64,000 bases of DNA from Candidatus Sericytochromatia bacterium (GCA_037968875.1 JBBKWI010000108.1:2305-66304); one strand, 5' to 3'. Shown: positions 62 to 35,651, numbered from the stretch's first letter. Made by a program: numbers and translations. Notes: generated by a model not told the origin, from the sequence alone.

Positions 62-3000
62 TTAGCGCCGATTGCTCGGCAGCAAATATTGCCAGACGGC
101 ATGGTGGTGCATCGTGACCTCGACCATTTGGCGACTGCCCGAATGCACGATCAGGGTATTGCCATTTTCCAGGCGATGGGCCGCCGTGGGATTGGTGATT
201 TTTTTATTGCCATCATTGACATTGCCCCCGTATTGCCAGGTCACGCCCCCGGCCGGGTCTACCTCAATGACCCGGTGGTTGCGGGTATCTACGATCAGGG
301 TATTGCTATTGATCAGACGGTGCGCCCGCTCCGGGTACATCAGTTGATAAGGGCCATTGCCTGGATTTTTGAGGGTGCCGTATTGCCAGATAATCTCGCC
401 CTCGCGATTGACTTCGATCACATAGTGATTGCTCCAATCGGTGATCAAGATCGTATTGTCAGGGGTTTGCTCGGCGTAATAAGGGGCGTTCAACGGGTTG
501 ACGCCCGTGTCCCAGCCGCCAAACTCCCAGATCAATTGCTGATGCTGATTGACTTCTAAGATCCGACCGGAGTACTGATCGGTGATCAAAACCGTATTGT
601 TAGAGGTGGTGACTGCTGAGCGGGGGTGTCCGAGCAGGCCCGGCCGAGAGCCCATCACACCGCGTTCGCCGTATTGCCACATAATCTCTTTGGTCGGGCG
701 ATAGATCTTGAGTACCCGATGCTGATCTGTATCCGTGACCAGGACTTCGCTGTCTTCACGCTCAGAGAGCTCGACATGCTGGGGCCGTTCCAGATGCAGT
801 TCATGACGGGGTGATTCTTCGCCTAAGCGCCAGACGATTTGTTTTTCACGATTGACCAGAAAAACTTTATTGTCTTGCTTGTCAATTAAAGGGATCTCAA
901 TATCTGTTAGCTTGGCTTTGGCGGCTGTGTATTTCTTGGCCGCTTGCTTCGCCAATTGGTTGATATGTGAAGCCGAGGGTTTGCTTGAGAGTTCGATAAT
1001 CTTTTCGCTCTCGGCCACCTGTTGGCTATAGCCTTCTGATTTAGGCAAATTGGCGTATTGGTAGAGATACATCGGTCGCAGTAAGCGCGTCACTTCGATC
1101 ACGTAGAGTGGGCTGAATACAACGGTATTGCCGTTGCCCATGCGGATCATACGCACCGGGATAAACGAAAAGGCGCCGTCACTGGCTTTCTCGATGCCTG
1201 TATCAAAATGCCAGGCCACTTCACCATGCGGGTTGACCTCGAGTACGCGCCGGTTTTCGGAATCAGAGATCAGCGTATTGCCATTGGGTAGACGGAAGGC
1301 CTGAGTCGGGGCGTTGATTTGATTGCTTTCGGAGCCATAGCCTGAGCCCAGCTTATTGGCGGCATTGCCATATTGCCAGATAATTTCTTCGTCGCTATTG
1401 ACCTCGATCACCCGGTGATTGTCTGTATCGGTGATCAAAAAGTGGCCGCCTTTGAGGCATTGCATATCGCCGGGGCTATAGAGTCTGCCACGGGTATTGC
1501 CGACCGACGCGGTGATGCCATACTGCCAGACAATTTTGTTTTGGGGGTTGATCTCGATAATGCGGTGATTGCCCTGATCGACAATGATCGTATTGCCATT
1601 AAGCTTGCGCATGGCCTTGACGGGTCGGTGCAGACGAATTTCAGAAGACTTATCTGCCGGCGGAAACTGCCAACGGACCTGACCCGATTTGGAGACTTCG
1701 TAGACGACGTCCTGGCCAGCGTCTGCGAAGAGCGTATTGCCATTGGGCAGGCGAATCGGGTTCTGGGGCTCGAGTAATTCCAGTGGGCCGATGCCATCTT
1801 CGCCACCGATTTGCCAGTGGATCACCCCTTTATTGGTGAATTCAATGATGCGACGTTTATCGACATCATTCACTAAGAAGGTATCGGCAGGCAGATCATC
1901 GCTGCGCAAGACCTCGTCATCAGACTCAAACGAGATTTGGCTGCCTTTGCTGGGTTGAGCCGGCTGAACAGGTTGATCAAGCTCTTTGACCTGTTGCGCC
2001 AATTGCTGGACCTGGGTTTTAGGAGTGGCTTCGATCACTTCAGGTTTGCTGGGGGAGATCGTATTGACCAGTGACATAAATGTCTCTTTGGTGATCACTG
2101 TTTCAAGGGAAAACTGATTAAATAAATCCGGTACCCGCACAATCGTGTATTCAAAATTCATGAGTTCTTTGCGGGCCCGCTCGACCAATGGCTGCAATTT
2201 TTCGATCACGTTTACATCGCCAGAGACATCGATGCCCCAGATTTTTTTGAATTCGTTCAGGCAGTATTCCATCAATTGCTGATTGACTTGTTCAATCGAG
2301 ACTTGCTCCCAATCGATTTCAGGATAGCTTTTTTCGGCCTGTTCAGTTTCGTCTTCATCGTCGTCACTGACCAGTATCGGTGGCAAAGCTGTACTCTGTG
2401 GCGCAGAAATGGCTGGCGGCGTTGCCGGTGTTGCAGGTTGTTTGGCTGCCACCACCTCAGGTTCTGGTTGTTGCACCACCGTCTCGGAGGCTGAGCCTGT
2501 CGAAGCTTCAGGGTATGCGGGCCCAGGGTAGCGTTGCAGATTTTCGACCACGCCTTCAGGGGCAGTGCCCTCGAATTCAGCCCGCTGATCCGGGTTCATA
2601 TGCGAGACAATATTTTTCATGCGGGTCATGATCGTGGTGTAAAACTCACGCATGAAACGCTCAAATTCTTCTTTGCCAAACTCCAAAAAGAAGAGCGGGA
2701 TATCCGGGAAGAGCTTGCTAGCAATGGCTTCGATCTCCGGGCGACTGGGGTTGACAGCCGCGATTCTGAAGATACCGTTGAGATGATTGATTGGCACAAA
2801 TTCAAATTGCCGCAGCAGACTTTCGCGAAACTGAATCAAAATGCTGGGGTCAATTTGATGGGCGTTGAGCACCGGGTAATCTTCTTCGGGATTGCCGCGC
2901 TGCTGTTCGACAGCATCAATCTGGCGAGATTCTTGATTTCCGATCGCAAAAGCCGGGTCATCGGAGCCGGGGTGAGCATCAAAATCTGCCAGAGACAGAC

Positions 3001-4270
3001 TGGGGGCTGTTGATGCGTTGCCGCTGTAGTTATTTAAGGTTTCGTGCAGAGTCCACTCGGCTTCTTCGACATCCTGGAAGCTGATAAAGTCCATTTCTAG
3101 CAGCACATCCAGAATCGACATGTCCACCTTAAAATAGCCTTCGGGCTTGCTGATCGCAAAGGTGATATGACTGGGTTTACTATCGTCGTTGAGCAAAGCA
3201 TAACGATCGATCAATTGATACGACTGCAAATCGACGATATTGATCCAGGGCGTAAACATGGCCGGGGCATCGACATAGGTCATAAAGATCAAAAACTGGT
3301 CCTGGGGATTGACGGCCATCAAATCTGTCGGGTCATCCAGAGTTGAAAAGAGATTGCCGTGCAGGGCCACACTGCTGCGCAAAAGCAAATTCTTGGTGTC
3401 TAGCACGACGATATCCACGGTTTCATCGGGCTTGGTACTTTGCAGATAGAGCCACTGGCCATCATGGGAGAGTTTGATGCTGCCCAAAATACCGTAAGGC
3501 AACGGCTGACGTTTGATCTTGAGGTTACGCAAGCTGACGATCAAGAGCGCTGGGGTGCTATTGTCGGTGATATACAGACGTTGGCCATCGGGGCTGACAG
3601 CCAGATTGAGTGTCTTACGGGAGCCTGTCGGGCGCACCACCACTGAGCCGGTCAGCTTCATTTCTATAGCATCAACAATAAAAATCGTGCCCCGGCCGCG
3701 ATCGGCCAAAAACAAATATTTGTGATCAGGGGAGACAATCAGATCGACCGGCAGGCATTTGAGACTATTCATGGGGATCAGGGGATAAGTGAAGGTGTTG
3801 CCCAGGGCCAGATAGGGGTGCTCATCGAGTTCACCGAAATAATAATGGGTGTGGTCATCAGAAACCGTCAGGCCGCCCTCATTGTCACCGTCCCAGACGA
3901 TTTCACCGATCTCACGGGCATTGGCAGCGTGAAACAAAAACACCGAGCCGCTGCCGGTGGGCAGCCAATCTGTCGAGAGATAACGGGGTTGGTATTTGCG
4001 GGTGGTGGGCAAGGCCAGACTGCGCAGGGTCTTGCCGCTCCAGGGATCCACTTCGCGCAATTGGTAGCTTTTTTGATCCATCACATAGGCCACGGCTTTG
4101 CCCTGGCTCTGTTGGCCTATTTTATAGGAGCGCAAACGGGAAAGAGCTGTAGACAATTGCTCAGGCGAAATTTTCCCTTGTTCTAGCAAATATTCCTGTA
4201 TCAGTTGTTCCTGAAACTCGGGATTGGAGCCCGATCCACCTGCACTATTGCTCATCTGCATTCCCATCAT
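62..4270 (-). CDS. Large multi-beta-propeller protein (YVTN-type propeller plus two NHL/PQQ-like propellers) with MshEN-like, T2SSE_N-like and Hsp70 IIB-like modules
   Basis: ORF 62..4348; real start is likely among the Mets at 4270-4255 (MMGMQMSN). Blades such as LIVSPDHKYLFLAD and LAVSPDGQRLYITD; many C-terminal repeats of type P..A.RL.NGNTLI.D..N.RV.EV...G...WQY. No signal peptide seen. Confidence 0.8.
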   Translation of the reverse strand: MMGMQMSNSAGGSGSNPEFQEQLIQEYLLEQGKISPEQLSTALSRLRSYKIGQQSQGKAVAYVMDQKSYQLREVDPWSGKTLRSLALPTTRKYQPRYLSTDWLPTGSGSVFLFHAANAREIGEIVWDGDNEGGLTVSDDHTHYYFGELDEHPYLALGNTFTYPLIPMNSLKCLPVDLIVSPDHKYLFLADRGRGTIFIVDAIEMKLTGSVVVRPTGSRKTLNLAVSPDGQRLYITDNSTPALLIVSLRNLKIKRQPLPYGILGSIKLSHDGQWLYLQSTKPDETVDIVVLDTKNLLLRSSVALHGNLFSTLDDPTDLMAVNPQDQFLIFMTYVDAPAMFTPWINIVDLQSYQLIDRYALLNDDSKPSHITFAISKPEGYFKVDMSILDVLLEMDFISFQDVEEAEWTLHETLNNYSGNASTAPSLSLADFDAHPGSDDPAFAIGNQESRQIDAVEQQRGNPEEDYPVLNAHQIDPSILIQFRESLLRQFEFVPINHLNGIFRIAAVNPSRPEIEAIASKLFPDIPLFFLEFGKEEFERFMREFYTTIMTRMKNIVSHMNPDQRAEFEGTAPEGVVENLQRYPGPAYPEASTGSASETVVQQPEPEVVAAKQPATPATPPAISAPQSTALPPILVSDDDEDETEQAEKSYPEIDWEQVSIEQVNQQLMEYCLNEFKKIWGIDVSGDVNVIEKLQPLVERARKELMNFEYTIVRVPDLFNQFSLETVITKETFMSLVNTISPSKPEVIEATPKTQVQQLAQQVKELDQPVQPAQPSKGSQISFESDDEVLRSDDLPADTFLVNDVDKRRIIEFTNKGVIHWQIGGEDGIGPLELLEPQNPIRLPNGNTLFADAGQDVVYEVSKSGQVRWQFPPADKSSEIRLHRPVKAMRKLNGNTIIVDQGNHRIIEINPQNKIVWQYGITASVGNTRGRLYSPGDMQCLKGGHFLITDTDNHRVIEVNSDEEIIWQYGNAANKLGSGYGSESNQINAPTQAFRLPNGNTLISDSENRRVLEVNPHGEVAWHFDTGIEKASDGAFSFIPVRMIRMGNGNTVVFSPLYVIEVTRLLRPMYLYQYANLPKSEGYSQQVAESEKIIELSSKPSASHINQLAKQAAKKYTAAKAKLTDIEIPLIDKQDNKVFLVNREKQIVWRLGEESPRHELHLERPQHVELSEREDSEVLVTDTDQHRVLKIYRPTKEIMWQYGERGVMGSRPGLLGHPRSAVTTSNNTVLITDQYSGRILEVNQHQQLIWEFGGWDTGVNPLNAPYYAEQTPDNTILITDWSNHYVIEVNREGEIIWQYGTLKNPGNGPYQLMYPERAHRLINSNTLIVDTRNHRVIEVDPAGGVTWQYGGNVNDGNKKITNPTAAHRLENGNTLIVHSGSRQMVEVTMHHHAVWQYLLPSNRR

Positions 4271-4351
4271 CAATGATTGTGATCTTAATTCTAACGTAAA
4301 GCGCCTTCTTCTGTGGTGAAATCGCGTAAAACAGTCGCTTGATCTCAATGC

Positions 4352-5353
4352 CTATTTTGGCTGCTGCTTGTTCCAGGCCAAAAAGTCGGCTTTGATCTCA
4401 GCGGCGCTGTGTTGATCCAGATAGCCTTCAAAATCGCTGCTGGTATCTAGCTTAAATTGTTTGATTGACTGGCCCAGGGCTTTGCTGGTCAAGCCGTTCC
4501 ACTGAGAGACCAGCTTGCCATTAAATTTTATTTTGCGGGCTTCATGTGCCGCATCAGCATCAGCGTAGTCTTTGAGCTGCCCCAGCAGATCGGCCGCCGG
4601 GAAGGCGTTGTGTATTTTGATCAAATAAGGGGATTTGTCAGCGTAATATTGGTAGGCCTTGTCGGCCAGACGTTGGCTTTGTTCGGGGGCTTGCAACCAC
4701 TCCAAAAAGCAGGTATACGTTTGGCGCTTGCGATTGCGGGTCCGATTGATGCTATTGAGGTTTTCATAAGCATAGATCTGCGGGTTAAAATAACGGCTGT
4801 GGGTCACAAAGTCAAAGATTTCTTCAAGGCTGTCAAAGCCTGACTGCCAGCGGGCATAATCATAATCCAAAAAGGCGTAAATTTCGGCCGGATTTGTCGA
4901 GAGCTGGATTTTTTGGGCCCGGTGGCCGGATTCGGTGCGGATTTGGTAGCTTAGACCATCCCAGCCAAATTTGAGGCCGAGTTTATGGGCGATGCGACCG
5001 ATTAAATTATTGAGATCGTTATAGCCAAAGTAAAACTGCGCACTTTCAAAGAATTGTGGATCGACATAGATCAGATCGACCTGAAAGTCCTGATAACGAA
5101 AACTGGTGATATCTTTGTTATAGACCACATCATCAGCACCCAATTGGGCCAAGAAAACCTCAAAGTCAGCCCGTTCCGGCTGAGGTTTGCAAACCAGAAC
5201 GTCCAGATCGCCAAAGTCAGGCTTCTGGCGATAATAGGTCAGGGCTGCCAGGCGAGGGTAGATCGTCTGTAATTCTGCTAAGACATGCGCTTCAAAGGGC
5301 TTGTACTCAGAGGCACTCAGGCGTTTTAAGTTTTCAAAGGCGTTACCGCCCAT
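4352..5353 (-). CDS. PolX/Pol-beta-superfamily nucleotidyltransferase (catalytic core only)
   Basis: YRQKPDFGDLDVLV (GDxD), third Asp in FQVDLI, thumb-like YFGYNDLNNLIGRIAHKLGLKFGWDGL; GGAG SD-like sequence upstream. Confidence 0.7.
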   Translation of the reverse strand: MGGNAFENLKRLSASEYKPFEAHVLAELQTIYPRLAALTYYRQKPDFGDLDVLVCKPQPERADFEVFLAQLGADDVVYNKDITSFRYQDFQVDLIYVDPQFFESAQFYFGYNDLNNLIGRIAHKLGLKFGWDGLSYQIRTESGHRAQKIQLSTNPAEIYAFLDYDYARWQSGFDSLEEIFDFVTHSRYFNPQIYAYENLNSINRTRNRKRQTYTCFLEWLQAPEQSQRLADKAYQYYADKSPYLIKIHNAFPAADLLGQLKDYADADAAHEARKIKFNGKLVSQWNGLTSKALGQSIKQFKLDTSSDFEGYLDQHSAAEIKADFLAWNKQQPK

Positions 5354-6551: not shown

Positions 6552-8450
6552 ATGGCTTTTGAAGCTTTGCCTCTCAATATTTTATTGGGCCCTTTAAGCC
6601 CCAGTCTGGTGACCGCAGAGCAGTCTATTTGCAATCCCTTGAGCTCCTTGCATTGTCTCGGGGATTATTTTGGCCACCCCCAGATCCAAACTTTTTTTAT
6701 TGGCAGCGAAGCACTGAGCCACTTGTACCCGGCAGGGCAGACGATTCAATCGATCGTGCCTGCTGAGCGTCTGGAGCTGCCACTGCAACCGAGCTACTTA
6801 TTGCAGCCTTTACTCGACAAAATTCAGCCTGAGTTTCAGCCAGATCTGATCCTGTGGTGGGGCTTGCAATATGGTTTTCCTGATGATTTTCAGCAGGTCA
6901 ACTTGCCCAAAATCTTGATTGTTTCGGACTGGAACCCTCATCACGCCCTGCTCTCAGAATTATTTGGGGTCTTCGACTATCTGCTCTGTGATCAAAAGCT
7001 CATTCAGATTTTTGCTGCTCAGGGTCGCCAGAATTGCGCCTACTGGCCAGCGTATGCCTTTGATGCCAGTAGGGTTCCCGCTGAGACCGGTGCTGAACGC
7101 GAAATCGATCTGATCTTTGTTGGTAATCACAACCCCCACAAATACCAGCAGCGCAACCATTATTTGTCACGAATGGCGAGCTTACCTTACCGCACCCTGA
7201 TCCGCTCGGATCTCAAACACGCGGAATATGTTTGGCTTTTGCAACGCAGCAAGATCGCCTTTAATTTTGCCCTGCGTCAAGAAATGAATATGCGCGCTTA
7301 TGAGGCAGCTGCCTGTGGGGCCTTATTATTGATTGAGGCCGAGAACCTTGAAATCCAGCATTATTTGACCCCTGGCCAGGACTGTGTACTCTATACTCCC
7401 GAGAATTTTGAGCAAGTGATCGCCTATTACCTCAGTCATGAAGACCAGCGCCTGGCGATTACCCGGCGGGCCAGGCAGCGGATCGAGACACAGACCTATA
7501 CGCAGCAATTTGCGACACTCTTGCAGCGACTGCCTACAATCCTAAAAGAGATTCAGGCCCAGCCCAAAACCCTGCCCTTGAAACCTGATGTTGAGCTGTC
7601 TCGGCTGGCCCTGAGTGAGCAATTGCAACGGGCAGTTCTGGCTCTGAGCCTGGATATTCCCTTACTGAGAATTAATGCGGCGCTGCGTCTGGAAAAGTGC
7701 TTGTCACAGGTCCAGTCTGCTGAGCAACGCCTCTTGCTCTTGAATGCCCTGCTGGTCTGCCACACAGATCTGCTATTGTCGCCTCCCGAGGGTGTTTTGC
7801 CAGGCTTCGATTGGTCTCTGTCTGCACTCAGGCACGCGCTCGTTCTTTTGTCTGAATCAGAAGGCTGGCAGCCGATTGTGGTCTATAATCTGGCCTGGAG
7901 TGCTTATCTAATCCAGCAGCCCTTGGCCCAGTGGCTAGAGCGTTGGCAGCAGTTTGATTGGAATCAAGAAGCAGCGGCTCCAGCTGATCTGGCGATCTTT
8001 GTGCTGCCTTTGCGTTTTATGGGCTTTTATCAGTATTATCAGGCGGCGCTGATTTCTACTCAGCAGACGGCCCTGACCCGCTATTTGCAAATGGGTATGC
8101 TGTACTTAGCCGGACACGCAGCCGAAGTGACGACCGGTGAAGTCGCTGCCCTGGCTTGCTTTCAGGCGGCCAATGAGATCCTGCCAGTGGCAGAAATCGC
8201 TTTTGAACAAAGCCGCTTATACTTGCAAAGGGGTCAAAAAAAAGCGGCTTTTGTGGCTTTAACGACGGGTCTCAATGGCGGTGTCTTTTATTCGAGGGCC
8301 TGGTGGGCTTTGTTACAGCTAGGGGCAGAACTCTTGCCTCCAGCTGCCCTGCAAGACTTGATTCGGCAGGCGTTGACTTTGTTTCAAGATCAAAAATATG
8401 CCCCTTTTCGCAGTCGGATCCAGCAGCAATTTGGTTCAATCCAGCCCTGA
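6552..8450 (+). CDS. CgeB/Glyco_trans_1_2-type glycosyltransferase with helical (TPR-like) C-terminal half
   Basis: SKIAFNF...NMRAYEAAACGALLL motif; DLIFVG...R; Leu/Ala-rich helical C-terminus. Confidence 0.8.
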   Translation: MAFEALPLNILLGPLSPSLVTAEQSICNPLSSLHCLGDYFGHPQIQTFFIGSEALSHLYPAGQTIQSIVPAERLELPLQPSYLLQPLLDKIQPEFQPDLILWWGLQYGFPDDFQQVNLPKILIVSDWNPHHALLSELFGVFDYLLCDQKLIQIFAAQGRQNCAYWPAYAFDASRVPAETGAEREIDLIFVGNHNPHKYQQRNHYLSRMASLPYRTLIRSDLKHAEYVWLLQRSKIAFNFALRQEMNMRAYEAAACGALLLIEAENLEIQHYLTPGQDCVLYTPENFEQVIAYYLSHEDQRLAITRRARQRIETQTYTQQFATLLQRLPTILKEIQAQPKTLPLKPDVELSRLALSEQLQRAVLALSLDIPLLRINAALRLEKCLSQVQSAEQRLLLLNALLVCHTDLLLSPPEGVLPGFDWSLSALRHALVLLSESEGWQPIVVYNLAWSAYLIQQPLAQWLERWQQFDWNQEAAAPADLAIFVLPLRFMGFYQYYQAALISTQQTALTRYLQMGMLYLAGHAAEVTTGEVAALACFQAANEILPVAEIAFEQSRLYLQRGQKKAAFVALTTGLNGGVFYSRAWWALLQLGAELLPPAALQDLIRQALTLFQDQKYAPFRSRIQQQFGSIQP

Positions 8451-30065: not shown

Positions 30066-33000
30066 ATGACGATACGTTTTAACCGAGAGCAAGTCCAGAG
30101 TTTCTGGAATACCAAAGCAGAGGGCCGTTCTGATAGCCCCCTGAGCAAAGCCTTGCGTGACAACCAGCTCAGCAAAACAGAATTCAATCAACTCAAATCA
30201 GCTTTTGAAAGCGAAAATCCTGGTCAGGATTTTGACAACTGGCTTTCAGATGCTCTCGATGGTCAACTCGATCAGCGTGTCAATTCAGACTTGAAATCAG
30301 CGGTTCAAAAACTCTCTCAAACGGGCTCTGCGGTCTCTTCAATCTCATTGGAGTTAAACGATTCAGGCCAGGGCTTTAGCGCAGCCATCTCGACCAGCTA
30401 TCAAAACGAAGACTGGTTAGCGGCGATGCATGCTGCTGACAGCAATCAAAATGGCCGGATTGAAGCCAGTGAAGCGGGTGCTTTGCGCGGCAAGGTGGAT
30501 TCGGATCTATTAAAGGGCTTAGACAAAGATGCCGTCTTGACCTTTGACACCGAGCAACGCAGCATGCGTTTTTATCCCGCTCGTGAAACTCCGACCTTAC
30601 ATGGCCGTTACCGTGATCTCAAAGTGGATTTACAACTCAATCTCAAAGATGTCGATGGCATTAGTGATACCAGCAAAGGCGACATTTCAGGCAAAGCCAG
30701 TGGCGAAATGCACTTTGACTGGAGCGGCCCCTTAACCCAAAGCATCGAACGGGGTGTGACCGAAAAAAGCCATGGCGTCTTTGATTCTCAAGCCCGTTAT
30801 GTCGCTGCCGACGACAAATCTGGTTATGGCCCCGGTTATGTAATACAGGCCGGTAATTCCTGGGTAGCGACCCGACCGATTGTGCTTAAGACAGATACCC
30901 AGGGGCAATTGTTTATTGAATCACCTGGCTTTGGCGAATGGGCCCGTCTGAAAATGGGTGAATACGGTCTGGCAGAATACGCCTTGCCACAGCTCAAAGC
31001 GATGGGCTTTGAGATGGAAATCGAGAAGCGCGACGATCGCATTTACCTCACTCCCAAAAGCCTGGAAGTTAATCATTTGCCTTTGTCCGCTCAGGGTGAC
31101 GCTCAAGGGCAAATTAAGCTTAATCTCAAGGGGCGGGTGCATTTCTCGGTTGGGCCTGATGGCTTAAAGGCCCGTCTGGATCAAGTCCCGGTTTCAGGGA
31201 GCTCTAATCCTTCTGGAGCGCGCGCAGTCGCCGATCTAAATAGCCAGGGTCAGCTCGTACCGGATGCTCTGGAGACCCATTTGCAAGTGGGACTGAACTA
31301 TAACCCGGATCAAAAACGACTGGATACGCAGGTCGTCGTCAAGGATTCGACCGCCACAATGGATCTGACTCCAGCAGAGCTTGAGCGTATTGCCTATTTA
31401 CCCACGGATCTCAAGCAATTGGCTGGAGATCATTTGCGCCTGCAATTACAAACCCAGGGGGCTTATCGCACGGTCAATGGCCAGTCACATGCAGGACAAA
31501 TGCAAGGCCAGATCACCGCGACTCAACGCAAAGGGGATCAAAGCACCGATGTCTTTAGTCGTTTTAAAGCCACTGGCTTACAAGCGGCCAGCTTAAGCGC
31601 CGTCGATATTCGCCATCAGCGTGCCGGTGAACGCTTTCGGGTTCGTGCTGAGCAAGGACGCGTGACAGTACCGGCTGGCCCGCAAGTCGAGTTGCATCAG
31701 GTACGGGGCCAGATCGACCTTAAAGGTCCTTTATTAGAACGTGTCAAAAGCCATTTGCGTGGCCCTCAGCCAGGGGCTTTGCAATTACAATCGGTCTTGA
31801 AGCAAATGGGTGTGCAGCAAAACGATCTGGAAGTCTTGAGCCAGGGCAGTGACCAGGAAATCTCTGATTTGCTCTCGACTAAGAAATTGGCCGATAAAAT
31901 TGAACAGGCCTTTGTAGGCCTCGATGCTGAGCGAGTGGTGATCAAACAATCCGATCGCCTGAACGTGGACGCACAAGGCGTGAGTGTCTCTGGCCGAGCG
32001 GGCAACAATGATAGCACCCGAATCCAGGGCCAGGGCCAAGTTGAAACCCTCAGTGGTGAGATTGATACCGCCAGTTTAGCCGTCAAAGTCAAAGCGGAGC
32101 AAGCGGATTTGCGGGCTGAAATTGGGCAAACTCAGGGGGCTGCACATACTGAGGGCAAAGCCAGAGTACAGGCTCAGGAACTCAGTCTGGATTATACGCC
32201 TGAGGCATTATCTGTCGCGGCCAAACAAACGGACTTTGATGGGGCCGTTGATTTAACCAGTTCCAGTGGCACTGTCTTTAAAGCTGCCGGTGGTGTTCAT
32301 CAAATCGATGCCCTGGCTGACAGTACACATCTGGAGTTGAGTGCCCAATCAGGTCAGGGGCAGCTTAGCTATACCGCTGCAGGAGGCTCACAAATCGCAA
32401 CGGATCTGACTCTGAATGATTTGCAATTGCAGCAAAATGCTCAGAGTGAATGGACCCTGAATGTTGCCAATCTGGATGCCCAATCTCAGCTGAATCTAGA
32501 TATCAGTGAGCTGCGGCAATTACTGGCCCAAACCGATCGTGAAAAATTAGTGCAATTGGCTCAGCTTGATAGCCCTGAAGGCCTCAAAGCCGGTTTGGCC
32601 TCTGCAGGGCTAGATGACAAAGCCGCAGGTCAGGCCGCGCGCTTGCTCAGACGCCCTGAAATGCATCAATTATTGGCCAGTTCTGAGTTTTTAGCAGCGC
32701 TCGAAGCAGGCAAAAATATCCGTGTAGATCTGCGTTCACAAGGAACACTTAATGCCAGTGATACCCAGGCTGATGGTTTTAGCTTAAATGCAGAAGTGAA
32801 GCATACAGCCCAGGGGCAGCTCGAAAATGCTGAAGGGCAGGCCCTGATACAAGGCGATGCCAAAGCAGATACCACAATCAAAGTCTCTGGCAGCGAAACC
32901 CAGGTTTTAAGTGCTGAATTACAAGCCAATCTAACGGGCTTCCGCAAAGATGGCTCTGAGTTTGGTGCTGTGCAAGCCCGCTTAGCTGATCTCAAAGCAC

Positions 33001-35651
33001 AAATCGGCCCTGCTTTAAGTCTCGACACCGGTGCTGTGCAAGTGGAAGCCCAGGCCAATACGCATCTAGATCCAGAAACCATGGTCCATTTGCAAGACGC
33101 CCTGGGACAGTTTCGCGATGAAATGCTCGCTCATGTCGCTAAATTGGGCCTCAATCGAGAGCAGTTTGAGCAGATATTGCAGGCGTTTGGTAAGCAGCAA
33201 TTAGATAGCTTGATCAAAGCCTTTAAAACCGAGAACCTGGGTGCTTTGTCTTCAGATCTGGGATTGAGTCCAGATCAAGTCAACAAGACCCTGGCACTCT
33301 TAAATGATGCGCCTTTCCAGAAATTGGTGCAGGACTTCTTTGAATACAGTAATCTGTTGAGTGGGTCAGACTTGAATTTACGCCTGCAAGTCGATGCTGA
33401 TAGCAGCCGTTGGTCCAAAGCAGATCAAAATTTGTTGGCTGAAATCAATGGTATTCAGGGCCATTTGTCTGCCCAGAGCGAGAATGAACAGGGGCAAGGA
33501 CGCTTACAAGCCGACCTCTCTCAAGATCAATTGCGCTATACCCGCACGGAGACAACCGAAACCCTCGATTGGCAGCCTCTTGATATCAATGCCAATGGGG
33601 ATTTAGCAGCCAGAGATGGCTCACGTTCGATTGAAGCCAGTGCGCAATTGCGCTCCCAGGCTGGCCAAATTGGCCGAGAGGGTCGTGAAATCAGCTCACG
33701 CTTAGACGGTATTGATATCAAAGCCCAGGGACGCCAGCGTCAGAGCGATGGCTCGGTGACTGAAGGCCAGGGGCGTCTTTCTGTAGCTGAAATTCGTTCG
33801 TCACGCCATCTCGATCAGGGCGACTCTTCCCGGATGCAGATCAAAGACATCAGTCTCGCGGGTCAAGCTGAACTCAGTGATGTCCAGTCTCGTCAGAATG
33901 GAGTCGGCTCTGCCGCTTTAACTATTGAAGAGCTAGAGCTGCGTCCTGACCAAATGGCAGCCCAAAAAACCCGTTTAGAAGCTGAACTGCGCACGCGTCA
34001 ATTGCAAGGCAATCAGGGCTTAAGCGAAGATCAGGCCAAAGCATTGGCATCAGCCCGTATACAAGTCGAAACCGACCAAATGAGTTCTTCGCCGACGGAT
34101 GGTTTCCAGACGCCTGAGCTCAGAGTGGCGGGTAGCCTGGATACGGGCTTGCAAAGCAAGCAGGGAGATGCCGTCACCCGCATGGGTCTTGAAGTACAGT
34201 CAGGCTCTTTCCAAGATCTTAAAGCCCAGTCGGGTCAAGTCTCGGTCAAGAATATCGAGGCCGATATCCTGGGTACAGCCCGCACCCCTTTTGTGCGCGG
34301 GGCCGCCCAGGGGCATTTACAGGTCCAGGGATTTGAATCCAATGAGAGCCAATCTCGTGCAGATGGCTTTAAATTTGATCAGGCCAATGGCAAATTGCAC
34401 TTAGATTCAGATCGTTTGCGTGATTTATTGGCGACCAGTCCGGATGCACTGGCGATCTTGACGACTGTCTCTGAGCGCTTGGTTGAACGCCAAACTGCCG
34501 AAAACAAAGGCACGAATATTTTCTCTAACCCGGAAGTCATCCTCGATATTGATCAGGCCGCTATCACTGGCGACGCCAGTGACGGCAATGCGCTCTCTGG
34601 GGGCGCAAGCTTGACGGCTCATTTGCGTGTACCTGATCTGCAAACCCAGATGGGTTCAGGCGTCGTCGACCTTACCTTGCATGATCTGACGCTGGCTGAA
34701 GGCAATCGTCCAGAAGTCCATGTCAGCGGACAGTTTGACTTTAAACCCAAGCAGCCCGCTTTTGATGTCGGCATGCAGGCTTTGTTTGACGATAGTCTCA
34801 AGAAAGCGGGCATGGATCTGCGGCCTGAAGTCCATTTCAAAAATGGTAAATTCGAAGTTAAAATTGACCGCTGGTACGTCGAAGGCCTGGTCTCGCTGGA
34901 TTTTGAAGGCGATAAAATCACGATGTCTGTCGACAAAGCCAAATTGCTGCACTTCTTAAGTGCCAAAGGCCTGGCGGCCCGCTTTACTGAGAGTCAGCTC
35001 AATAATTATCTGCTCGATATCAATCGCAGTGGCGAGAGCATGAGTTTGTCTCTCAATGAATTCTCTGAGCAATTATTGCACAAAGACAATCTGCAGATTC
35101 AATCGGTTGAAACCAGCCCCAATAATACGATTGGGATTCGTTTTGCTTATACAGATACCCCGACCTATAATGCCGGCTTCAAACAGCGTCAGCAAACTAA
35201 AATCGAAGAGCGCCTGATCCAGGATCCCAAAACTGGGCAAGCCCGTTCTGAAGGCAAGCTAGAAGATTTGGTCGAAGATCTCGATCCGGTGCGCTTGCGT
35301 CGTATTTTTCAACAAGCCAATCCAGGCCAATTGCGTAAAATGCTTGAATCCGTGGGTAAGGACTACGATAATATCTCGCGCTCGGTGCTGGCTGACCGCG
35401 AGCAATGGTCACGCTACCCGGTCGCCAATAAAGCAATCATGTCAGCCTACCTGGCCGATAATTCAGGCTTTTTAGAAAGTGTCAGTAGCGATGAAAAAGA
35501 GCTCGTCAAAGCCCTCTATAATGGCCTGAGCCCCTCAGAAAAGCAAGCCTTTCAACAGGCCCTGCAAAACGAAGAATGGCAAAACGTGCAAAAGATTCTC
35601 AACCCTGAGGCCAGCAGTCGCCGTCAGCCCCGCTGGCGCAACGGGCGCTAA
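30066..35651 (+). CDS. Giant 1861-aa hypothetical beta-rich protein with N-terminal EF-hand
   Basis: Uninterrupted ORF, AGAG SD, DSNQNGRIEASE loop, alternating amphipathic beta-strand blocks and helical inserts. Confidence 0.85.
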   Translation: MTIRFNREQVQSFWNTKAEGRSDSPLSKALRDNQLSKTEFNQLKSAFESENPGQDFDNWLSDALDGQLDQRVNSDLKSAVQKLSQTGSAVSSISLELNDSGQGFSAAISTSYQNEDWLAAMHAADSNQNGRIEASEAGALRGKVDSDLLKGLDKDAVLTFDTEQRSMRFYPARETPTLHGRYRDLKVDLQLNLKDVDGISDTSKGDISGKASGEMHFDWSGPLTQSIERGVTEKSHGVFDSQARYVAADDKSGYGPGYVIQAGNSWVATRPIVLKTDTQGQLFIESPGFGEWARLKMGEYGLAEYALPQLKAMGFEMEIEKRDDRIYLTPKSLEVNHLPLSAQGDAQGQIKLNLKGRVHFSVGPDGLKARLDQVPVSGSSNPSGARAVADLNSQGQLVPDALETHLQVGLNYNPDQKRLDTQVVVKDSTATMDLTPAELERIAYLPTDLKQLAGDHLRLQLQTQGAYRTVNGQSHAGQMQGQITATQRKGDQSTDVFSRFKATGLQAASLSAVDIRHQRAGERFRVRAEQGRVTVPAGPQVELHQVRGQIDLKGPLLERVKSHLRGPQPGALQLQSVLKQMGVQQNDLEVLSQGSDQEISDLLSTKKLADKIEQAFVGLDAERVVIKQSDRLNVDAQGVSVSGRAGNNDSTRIQGQGQVETLSGEIDTASLAVKVKAEQADLRAEIGQTQGAAHTEGKARVQAQELSLDYTPEALSVAAKQTDFDGAVDLTSSSGTVFKAAGGVHQIDALADSTHLELSAQSGQGQLSYTAAGGSQIATDLTLNDLQLQQNAQSEWTLNVANLDAQSQLNLDISELRQLLAQTDREKLVQLAQLDSPEGLKAGLASAGLDDKAAGQAARLLRRPEMHQLLASSEFLAALEAGKNIRVDLRSQGTLNASDTQADGFSLNAEVKHTAQGQLENAEGQALIQGDAKADTTIKVSGSETQVLSAELQANLTGFRKDGSEFGAVQARLADLKAQIGPALSLDTGAVQVEAQANTHLDPETMVHLQDALGQFRDEMLAHVAKLGLNREQFEQILQAFGKQQLDSLIKAFKTENLGALSSDLGLSPDQVNKTLALLNDAPFQKLVQDFFEYSNLLSGSDLNLRLQVDADSSRWSKADQNLLAEINGIQGHLSAQSENEQGQGRLQADLSQDQLRYTRTETTETLDWQPLDINANGDLAARDGSRSIEASAQLRSQAGQIGREGREISSRLDGIDIKAQGRQRQSDGSVTEGQGRLSVAEIRSSRHLDQGDSSRMQIKDISLAGQAELSDVQSRQNGVGSAALTIEELELRPDQMAAQKTRLEAELRTRQLQGNQGLSEDQAKALASARIQVETDQMSSSPTDGFQTPELRVAGSLDTGLQSKQGDAVTRMGLEVQSGSFQDLKAQSGQVSVKNIEADILGTARTPFVRGAAQGHLQVQGFESNESQSRADGFKFDQANGKLHLDSDRLRDLLATSPDALAILTTVSERLVERQTAENKGTNIFSNPEVILDIDQAAITGDASDGNALSGGASLTAHLRVPDLQTQMGSGVVDLTLHDLTLAEGNRPEVHVSGQFDFKPKQPAFDVGMQALFDDSLKKAGMDLRPEVHFKNGKFEVKIDRWYVEGLVSLDFEGDKITMSVDKAKLLHFLSAKGLAARFTESQLNNYLLDINRSGESMSLSLNEFSEQLLHKDNLQIQSVETSPNNTIGIRFAYTDTPTYNAGFKQRQQTKIEERLIQDPKTGQARSEGKLEDLVEDLDPVRLRRIFQQANPGQLRKMLESVGKDYDNISRSVLADREQWSRYPVANKAIMSAYLADNSGFLESVSSDEKELVKALYNGLSPSEKQAFQQALQNEEWQNVQKILNPEASSRRQPRWRNGR

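Follow-up and report, generated by a model that had tools for sequence, protein, structure and literature searches.

The DNA analysed here, referred to as the window, is a stretch of 64,000 nt from Candidatus Sericytochromatia bacterium (GCA_037968875.1 JBBKWI010000108.1:2305-66304). The Sericytochromatia are the non-photosynthetic sister class of the photosynthetic cyanobacteria. The minus strand of the window carries, at positions 62..4270, a gene for a soluble multidomain protein of 1402 amino acids (aa), with a mass of 158 kDa, an isoelectric point (pI) of 5.1 and a net charge of -56. The protein combines, in this order, a MshEN domain that is predicted to be split by a nested YVTN-type beta-propeller, an orphan Hsp70 subdomain IIB and two NHL-type propellers, A and B. 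The first ~580 residues appear to represent one MshEN/GSPII domain, a type that is found as the regulatory or docking N-domain of the PilB/GspE/MshE ATPases. The four folded units are separated by linkers that are low both in conservation and in predicted local distance difference test score (pLDDT) within an AlphaFold model of aa 1-800 (pLDDT 69.8, predicted template-modelling score (pTM) 0.50). The features, all on the minus strand (-), are as follows:

62..4348 (-): open reading frame (ORF); stop codon at 62-64, likely start ATG 4270, alternative ATG 4255
62..4270 (-): whole gene, soluble multidomain protein of 1402 aa
4103..4225 (-): hairpin A, aa 16-56, putative MshEN_N motif I (four-helix subdomain), modelled with helices at 17-30 and 36-55
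3143..4102 (-): YVTN-type 7-bladed beta-propeller, aa 57-376, in place of the canonical 5-residue MshEN spacer
3020..3121 (-): hairpin B, aa 384-417, putative motif II of MshEN_N; helices 386-392 and 398-417 in the model
2939..3019 (-): acidic loop, aa 418-444, disordered and poorly conserved (pLDDT <50, majority fraction 0.32, gap in the relative P0033)
2522..2938 (-): MshEN_C/T2SSE_N alpha-beta subdomain with trailing helices, aa 445-583
2321..2521 (-): Pro/Ala/Glu-rich disordered linker, aa 584-650, net charge -10
2051..2320 (-): orphan Hsp70 subdomain IIB, aa 651-740, behind the MshEN domain and ahead of NHL propeller A
1886..2050 (-): disordered linker, aa 741-795; site of a CxxC...CxxC zinc ribbon in distant relatives
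1061..1885 (-): NHL-type propeller A, aa 796-1070, probably 6-bladed; Pfam NHL, PQQ_2 and Arylsulfotran_2
896..1060 (-): conserved, mildly basic inter-propeller linker, aa 1071-1125
65..895 (-): NHL-type propeller B, aa 1126-1402, probably 6-bladed, on the basis of PDB profiles, the ScyF model and the blade pattern

The database protein P0001 (1397 aa), which starts at the alternative ATG 4255, matches the window protein at 100%. Among 21 sequences, with identities down to 45%, 350 of the 1402 positions are invariant and all folded parts are under strong purifying selection. Promoter and terminator scans showed no difference from shuffled expectation, and the gene looks monocistronic.

MshEN and Hsp70 modules belong to cytoplasmic families. 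Given this, and considering that the window protein contains no hydrophobic segment that could act as a signal peptide or membrane helix (the highest Kyte-Doolittle (KD-19) value is 1.4 for the whole protein and -0.12 for its first 60 aa) and that a pattern scan found no Walker A motif ([AG]xxxxGK[ST]) anywhere in it, the protein can be taken to be cytoplasmic and not an ATPase. The T2SSE ATPase family PF00437 gave no Pfam match either. An earlier reading, made from the sequence alone and hereafter called the sequence-only reading, had likewise described a protein of cytoplasmic appearance without an ATPase.

The putatively split MshEN domain and the nested YVTN propeller

The canonical MshEN_N subdomain is a four-helix bundle composed of two 24-residue motifs with a five-residue joint (PMC5013675). 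In the window protein motif I is found at aa 22-47 and motif II at aa 385-410. The peptides that the sequence-only reading quoted from these motifs, LIQEYLLEQGKISPEQLSTAL (aa 23-43, nt 4142-4204) and ILDVLLEMDFISFQDVEEA (aa 386-404, nt 3059-3115), were all recovered in place, as was the T2SSE_N-like stretch QIDPSIL...EFERFMREFY (aa 472-544, nt 2639-2857). In that reading the motifs were taken for two degenerate copies of a MshEN motif on either side of the propeller. Both motifs are present and do flank it, but the alignments indicate that they correspond to motifs I and II of a single four-helix subdomain interrupted by the propeller, and so to halves of a split MshEN_N and not to separate copies.

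The 53-position MshEN_N model NF053729 aligned only with its first half (positions 2-31) and only with the N-terminal hairpin, both in the window protein (positions 4-25, 17.3 bits) and in six of eight distant relatives; the score for P0033, a more canonical relative, was 37.0 bits against a cut-off of 38. The hairpin that follows the propeller in P0033 forms the start of the alignments with PilB TIGR02538 (31-133) and with the MshEN region of NfrB (511-620). In a phmmer search against the PDB, P0033 matched PilF GSPII-A in two pieces, residues 16-41 aligning with 9-34 (motif I) and residues 369-482 with 39-150 (motif II and MshEN_C). P0033 and the window protein are colinear over aa 19-561 (E 3e-41), with corresponding hairpins and propellers, and both motif frameworks of the window protein thus map colinearly to PilF GSPII-A via P0033. 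The two-piece match and this colinearity imply that the YVTN propeller, which separates the motifs by ~340 aa, occupies the position of the five-residue spacer. The glycine turn of hairpin B is a D in the window protein and a G in most orthologues.

For the MshEN_C part, the Pfam model PF05157 scored 21.3 bits on the full window protein, just under the cut-off of 23.1, and 24.4 bits on the isolated segment. On isolated segments it matched all 14 family members that were scanned (best E 2.7e-10). A profile of the mid-region had no match in the PDB at E <= 10, and the link to solved MshEN domains therefore depended on a fold search and on P0033. An AlphaFold model of aa 375-585 (pLDDT 77.7) was searched against the PDB with Foldseek, and the 21 best matches were all MshEN/GSPII/T2SSE_N domains: Thermus PilF GSPII-B and GSPII-A, Vibrio MshE (5htl), Xanthomonas XpsE (2d27/2d28), the Xanthomonas PilB-PilZ complex (7lko) and the Myxococcus PilB model (3jc8). 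GspE (4pht) followed at ranks 23-27. The alpha-beta subdomain superposes with a root-mean-square deviation of 1.7-3.0 A over 61-79 columns in short, single-subdomain alignments, and of ~16 A in long ones. The T2SSE_N/MshEN assignment of the sequence-only reading is thereby borne out by both Pfam and Foldseek, the fold search having returned the expected domains and not unrelated folds. The window clade carries an acidic and poorly conserved extra loop of ~49 residues between motif II and MshEN_C (aa 418-444 and neighbouring residues), which the P0033 clade lacks.

The propeller itself was correctly called as YVTN-type. Its best Foldseek match was the archaeal protein 1l0q (4.5e-15), with hydrazine synthase beta and YncE among the other matches, and a profile search of the PDB also retrieved 1l0q (1.6e-10). 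DSSP assigned 27 strands within aa 60-374 of the aa 1-800 model, a pattern that is consistent with seven blades. The YVTN model TIGR02276 reached 27.8 bits in the relative P0028, just below its cut-off of 27.85, and further database matches carry the name 'YVTN family beta-propeller protein'. Homologue searches with the N-terminal 420 aa and with the mid-region alignment yielded six generic YVTN proteins and one fragment, respectively, and no new architecture. The best YVTN relative, 1l0q, is an S-layer protein, and the propeller also matched PKD, LPXTG or PGF-anchored proteins in the database, which would suit a secreted or cell-surface protein, like most bacterial YVTN and NHL proteins. We regard such a location as highly improbable, as a signal peptide or anchor is absent from every family member, the MshEN and Hsp70 modules are cytoplasmic, and the protein is strongly acidic with long disordered linkers.

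To evaluate the cyclic di-GMP (c-di-GMP) site, two motif definitions were applied, each required twice per protein: a strict one, RLGxx(L/V/I)(L/V/I)xxG(L/V/I)(L/V/I)xxxxLxxxLxxQ, and a relaxed one, [RKPN]hGxxhhxx[GAS]hhxxxxhxxxhxx[QNKRYWST] (PMC5013675). Neither was matched by any of the 30 family members, in agreement with the absence of the RLG residues from the motifs in the sequence-only reading; the sole RLG of the window protein falls within an NHL blade. Motif I carries R->L at position 1, G->Q at position 3 and Q->L at position 24; in motif II, position 1 is occupied by S and position 3 by L. The Arg at position 1 and the Gln at position 24 are gone from both motifs in every member, and the window clade has also lost the Gly at position 3, while the hydrophobic framework of both motifs and the turn are retained in the family. 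Considering that XpsE and PilF GSPII-A have lost c-di-GMP binding with smaller deviations, according to the literature, the replacement of the contact residues makes canonical binding by the window protein unlikely.

One could still envisage a receptor for a nucleotide second messenger, in which the split four-helix bundle would bind c-di-GMP or another dinucleotide in a non-canonical way and the propeller would transmit the binding to a conformational output. The contacts that MshEN domains make with the ligand are mostly hydrophobic (PMC5013675) and the corresponding framework is conserved; in addition, both motifs of the P0033/P0123 clade still begin with hLG (LLG and DLG/DVG), and P0033 comes close to the cut-off of the c-di-GMP motif model, as mentioned above. 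Given the loss of the Arg and Gln positions throughout the family, and of the Gly in the window clade, and given that XpsE and PilF GSPII-A needed fewer changes to lose binding, we consider this quite unlikely.

The Hsp70 fragment and the NHL propellers

The subdomain IIB at aa 651-740 was missed in the sequence-only reading. The segment of the window protein matched yeast Ssb1 (2.5e-7) and DnaK (2.3e-5) in the PDB, aligned to Hsp70 residues ~230-312, and the family profile gave a PDB match at 8e-10. In an exhaustive search of 1.84 billion protein representatives most of the 150 matches listed fell on this stretch (best 1.8e-12), and those that were checked were ordinary HSP70s. The topology of aa 651-740 in the model, two helices followed by a beta-hairpin and a helix, agrees with that of Hsp70 IIB, and the conserved pattern of the region reads 'C-x-x-E-F-K-K-I-W-G-I-D ... 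E-R-A-R-x-E-L ... Y-T-I-I-R-V'. The remainder of the Hsp70 nucleotide-binding domain is absent, the matches being confined to Hsp70 residues ~227-328. Acidic linkers of low conservation and low pLDDT connect the lobe with the MshEN domain in front of it and with NHL propeller A behind it.

The IIB lobe of Hsp70 is the one that exchange factors contact. The orphan lobe might thus bind an exchange factor such as GrpE or pair with DnaK, and in this way link clients of a chaperone network to the propellers; the significant homology and the conservation of the Hsp70 helix 'ERAKRTLS' as 'ERAR-x-EL' would be compatible with such a role. It is nevertheless very unlikely, given that the lobe is missing from the P0123/P0143/P0033 clade and degenerate in P0031, hence not core to the family, and that no chaperone gene occurs among the conserved neighbours.

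The C-terminal half of the protein matched the NHL domains of TRIM2, TRIM3, TRIM71, Thin and Brat in searches against PDB profiles (E 1e-14 to 1e-11), and propeller B scored 63 bits with the ScyF NHL model. This half consists of two times six blades with the consensus D-x-x-N-H-R...W-Q-Y-G, as judged from the sequence pattern (PF01436 matched), and the two NHL-like propellers of the sequence-only reading are thus confirmed. Propeller A is the most conserved part of the protein, with 103 of 275 positions invariant, followed by propeller B with 102 of 277 (37% in each).

Conservation of this order raises the question of a catalytic site in one or both NHL propellers, with the N-terminal modules serving in regulation or localization. 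The propellers also match Arylsulfotran_2 (PF14269, E 1.4e-10) and PQQ_2 (1.1e-11), and ASST (PF05935) was matched in relatives. However, the ASST and PQQ_2 matches span generic blade repeats only (profile positions 220-299 of 301), the best relatives of known structure are TRIM-NHL domains, which are not enzymes, and most of the invariant residues belong to the structural NHL consensus, no catalytic motif having been identified. An enzyme therefore appears improbable. Binding of nucleic acids in a YncE-like or TRIM-NHL-like manner was also considered, and ranked low, given that the pI values of the folded domains all lie within 4.4-6.3, acidic to near-neutral, and that the protein as a whole is so strongly negative.

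Family members and genomic context

A first search retrieved 21 full-length or nearly full-length orthologues (43-89% identity), the named ones coming from metagenome-assembled genomes (MAGs) of Sericytochromatia, Blackallbacteria or 'Obscuribacterales' and being annotated as hypothetical, PQQ-propeller or YncE proteins. Divergent relatives with the same architecture (P0026, P0027, P0029, P0031, P0123 and P0143; 1137-1386 aa) came from the exhaustive profile search; their MshEN scores range over 21-44 bits, and all but one of the six exceed the cut-off. The named members from this search belong to the Sericytochromatia, apart from one fragment binned as Oscillatoriaceae. A pattern scan of GTDB, with one genome for each of 185,579 species, yielded ten loci, all in Sericytochromatia, Blackallbacteria or UBA7694. 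In these searches the family was found only in the Sericytochromatia.

The hairpin-YVTN-hairpin unit and the NHL part form the constant core of the family, and MshEN_C, IIB, a CxxC...CxxC zinc ribbon and a CheA-P2-like domain vary among relatives. The low-GC member P0035 (910 aa) contains hairpin-YVTN-hairpin, IIB, the zinc ribbon and a single NHL propeller, lacks MshEN_C, and so shows which of the modules are dispensable. The zinc-ribbon motif, CxxC-x(9-12)-CxxC, lies between IIB and the first NHL propeller in P0021, P0022, P0026, P0027, P0035 and P0136; in the window clade a disordered linker (1886-2050) replaces it. P0136 (1386 aa), of which the architecture was taken directly from the sequence, lacks MshEN_C as well and ends in a CheA P2-like domain (residues 1298-1376, PF07194, E 4.6e-15). 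This domain is of the response-regulator-binding type, which hints that at least one variant may talk to a CheY-like protein. The match of P0136 to the linker region (E 1.5e-4) was not used as evidence of homology, as this region is probably partly of low complexity.

The immediate neighbours of the gene in the window are a 333-aa protein without a Pfam match, a metallophosphoesterase, a glycosyltransferase-like protein and DUF1361. The ORF for the 333-aa protein (4352-5353, minus strand) lies on the same strand, 82 nt upstream, and is not a conserved neighbour elsewhere. In the 632-aa protein encoded at 6552-8450 (plus strand) Glyco_trans_1_2 covers residues 201-324 only, and the C-terminal ~300 residues have no family match. 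Further away, at 30066-35651 (plus strand), an ORF of 1861 aa has no Pfam family at E <= 0.001.

To compare contexts, the ORFs of 17 loci (the window, six loci reached through proteins and ten from GTDB genomes) were subjected to an all-against-all BLASTP. Only the gene itself was common to all, without a family-wide neighbour, and recurring neighbours were confined to a closely related subgroup of Blackallbacteria. At the six relative loci for which called genes were listed, the neighbours were unrelated to one another and no pilus or type II secretion system (T2SS) gene was adjacent within 8-10 kb, except for an ATPase that is probably unlinked. The latter is a T2SSE-family protein of 728 aa with CbiA/AAA_31-like N-terminal matches (locus L005, 1-826, minus strand), situated on the 5.18-Mb contig of the distant relative P0027, ~9 kb upstream of the P0027 gene and on the other strand, at this locus only.

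These data bear directly on the proposal of the sequence-only reading that the protein is an adaptor, docking propeller hubs via its MshEN/T2SSE_N part at a type IV pilus or T2SS platform. Candidate partners under this proposal are PilM, PilC, GspL and PilZ. Among solved structures, the alpha-beta subdomain has its closest relatives exclusively in PilF, MshE, XpsE, PilB and GspE, and two of these were captured in complex with PilZ or GspL. Chemotaxis-like systems run pilus motility in cyanobacteria, and P0136 ends in a CheA-P2-like domain; moreover, the L005 gene indicates that a T2SSE-family ATPase exists in the lineage. The homologue and gene-neighbourhood analysis did recover homologues, but no pilus/T2SS gene cluster adjoins them: none of the genes in question is present in the 64-kb window or next to the gene at the six relative loci, no neighbour is conserved over the 17 loci, and the single L005 ATPase is distant and on the opposite strand. 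MshEN_C is missing altogether from P0035 and P0136, and a literature search for Sericytochromatia and type IV pili returned nothing relevant. MshEN domains also occur in many non-pilus proteins, being known as fusions to REC, HD-GYP, CheA, CheX, cyclase, Ser/Thr kinase and glycosyltransferase domains (PMC5013675), and the domain alone therefore does not imply pili. Nothing beyond domain ancestry ties the protein to pili, and a role at a pilus or T2SS platform seems to us rather unlikely.

Possible functions and comparison with known systems

The interpretation that we tentatively prefer, although it may well prove wrong, is that of a soluble cytoplasmic and multivalent scaffold or adaptor, whose degenerate MshEN domain docks a protein. 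The MshEN part would no longer sense c-di-GMP and, by analogy with the N1 domain of XpsE/GspE and GspL, or with PilB and PilZ, might act as a protein-docking module, the three propellers and the IIB lobe providing further binding surfaces. Arranged as 'beads on a string', these units would assemble several cytoplasmic partners, a pilus/T2SS partner being one possibility among several. The exchange of accessory modules among distant relatives, with hairpin-YVTN-hairpin and NHL retained, is scaffold-like. Several points weigh against such a scaffold. The comparison of gene neighbourhoods yielded neither a partner nor a family-wide neighbour; that hairpins A and B pack into a single bundle is a prediction, and the pTM of the aa 1-800 model is only 0.50. 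The high conservation of the NHL propellers would also suit a catalytic or small-molecule site. Multi-propeller proteins, moreover, tend to be called scaffolds by default, a label from which few specific predictions follow.

A more speculative and quite doubtful variant would make the nested propeller a new allosteric switch. Closure of the bundle formed by hairpins A and B, perhaps by a non-canonical nucleotide, would then be mechanically coupled to binding by the YVTN propeller and gate the docking surface of MshEN_C together with the tethered IIB and NHL modules. The protein would in that case constitute a lineage-specific signaling hub of the Sericytochromatia without a counterpart in studied bacteria.

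The sequence-only reading did not recognise the architecture from characterised proteins, and no characterised protein that has it was retrieved here either. The relatives are all hypothetical proteins from Sericytochromatia MAGs, and a literature search for MshEN in combination with a propeller returned nothing relevant, that is, no description of a propeller nested between half-sites, of the three-propeller combination or of a free-standing Hsp70 IIB. The absence of the ATPase is not in itself new, as MshEN outside ATPases is well documented. If the split is real in three dimensions, it would be, as far as we could find, the first MshEN/GSPII domain with a whole domain between its nucleotide-binding half-sites, and the lone IIB lobe would be a rare case of survival outside Hsp70; both would then be natural experiments on the folding and binding of modules. 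The protein ranks among the most conserved large lineage-specific genes of the Sericytochromatia, so that its function would inform the cell biology of an uncultured group. For now, however well defined, it is a curiosity of that lineage and opens no long-standing question.

When compared to the secretion and pilus ATPases MshE, PilB, PilF, GspE and XpsE, the window protein shares MshEN_C by sequence (PF05157) and by fold (Foldseek), as well as a pair of helix-turn-helix motifs, 24 residues each, that agree in hydrophobic framework, glycine turn and order relative to MshEN_C. It differs from them by a ~340-residue 7-bladed propeller in the place of a 5-residue spacer, by the replacement of the Arg, Gly and Gln that contact c-di-GMP, and by the lack of both the T2SSE ATPase domain and a surrounding pilus or secretion operon. 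Close parallels are the N-domain of Xanthomonas XpsE and GSPII-A of Thermus PilF, the latter being the solved domain with which each half of the putatively split one could be aligned. In these, too, the motifs are degenerate and binding is lost, with the fold kept and engaged in protein-protein contacts; their domains, however, are contiguous and sit at the N-terminus of a working ATPase. The non-ATPase MshEN fusions resemble the window protein in that the module is reused outside the secretion ATPases, and the MshEN region of NfrB aligns with the part behind the propeller. The fusions described so far bind c-di-GMP and regulate an enzymatic or signaling output, whereas the window protein has three propellers and an Hsp70 fragment instead, and no recognisable output enzyme.

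With Hsp70/DnaK the likeness is limited to ~85 residues, which align at ~230-312 and have the same helix-helix-hairpin-helix topology. Subdomains IA, IB and IIA and the substrate-binding domain are absent from the window protein, which therefore cannot be an ATPase chaperone. Finally, the propellers agree with the known YVTN (1l0q, YncE) and NHL (TRIM2, TRIM71, Brat, ScyF) proteins in repeat consensus and in the blade numbers of seven and six, and the window protein is set apart from these by its predicted cytoplasmic location and by the presence of three propellers in a single chain, one of which appears to be nested in another domain.

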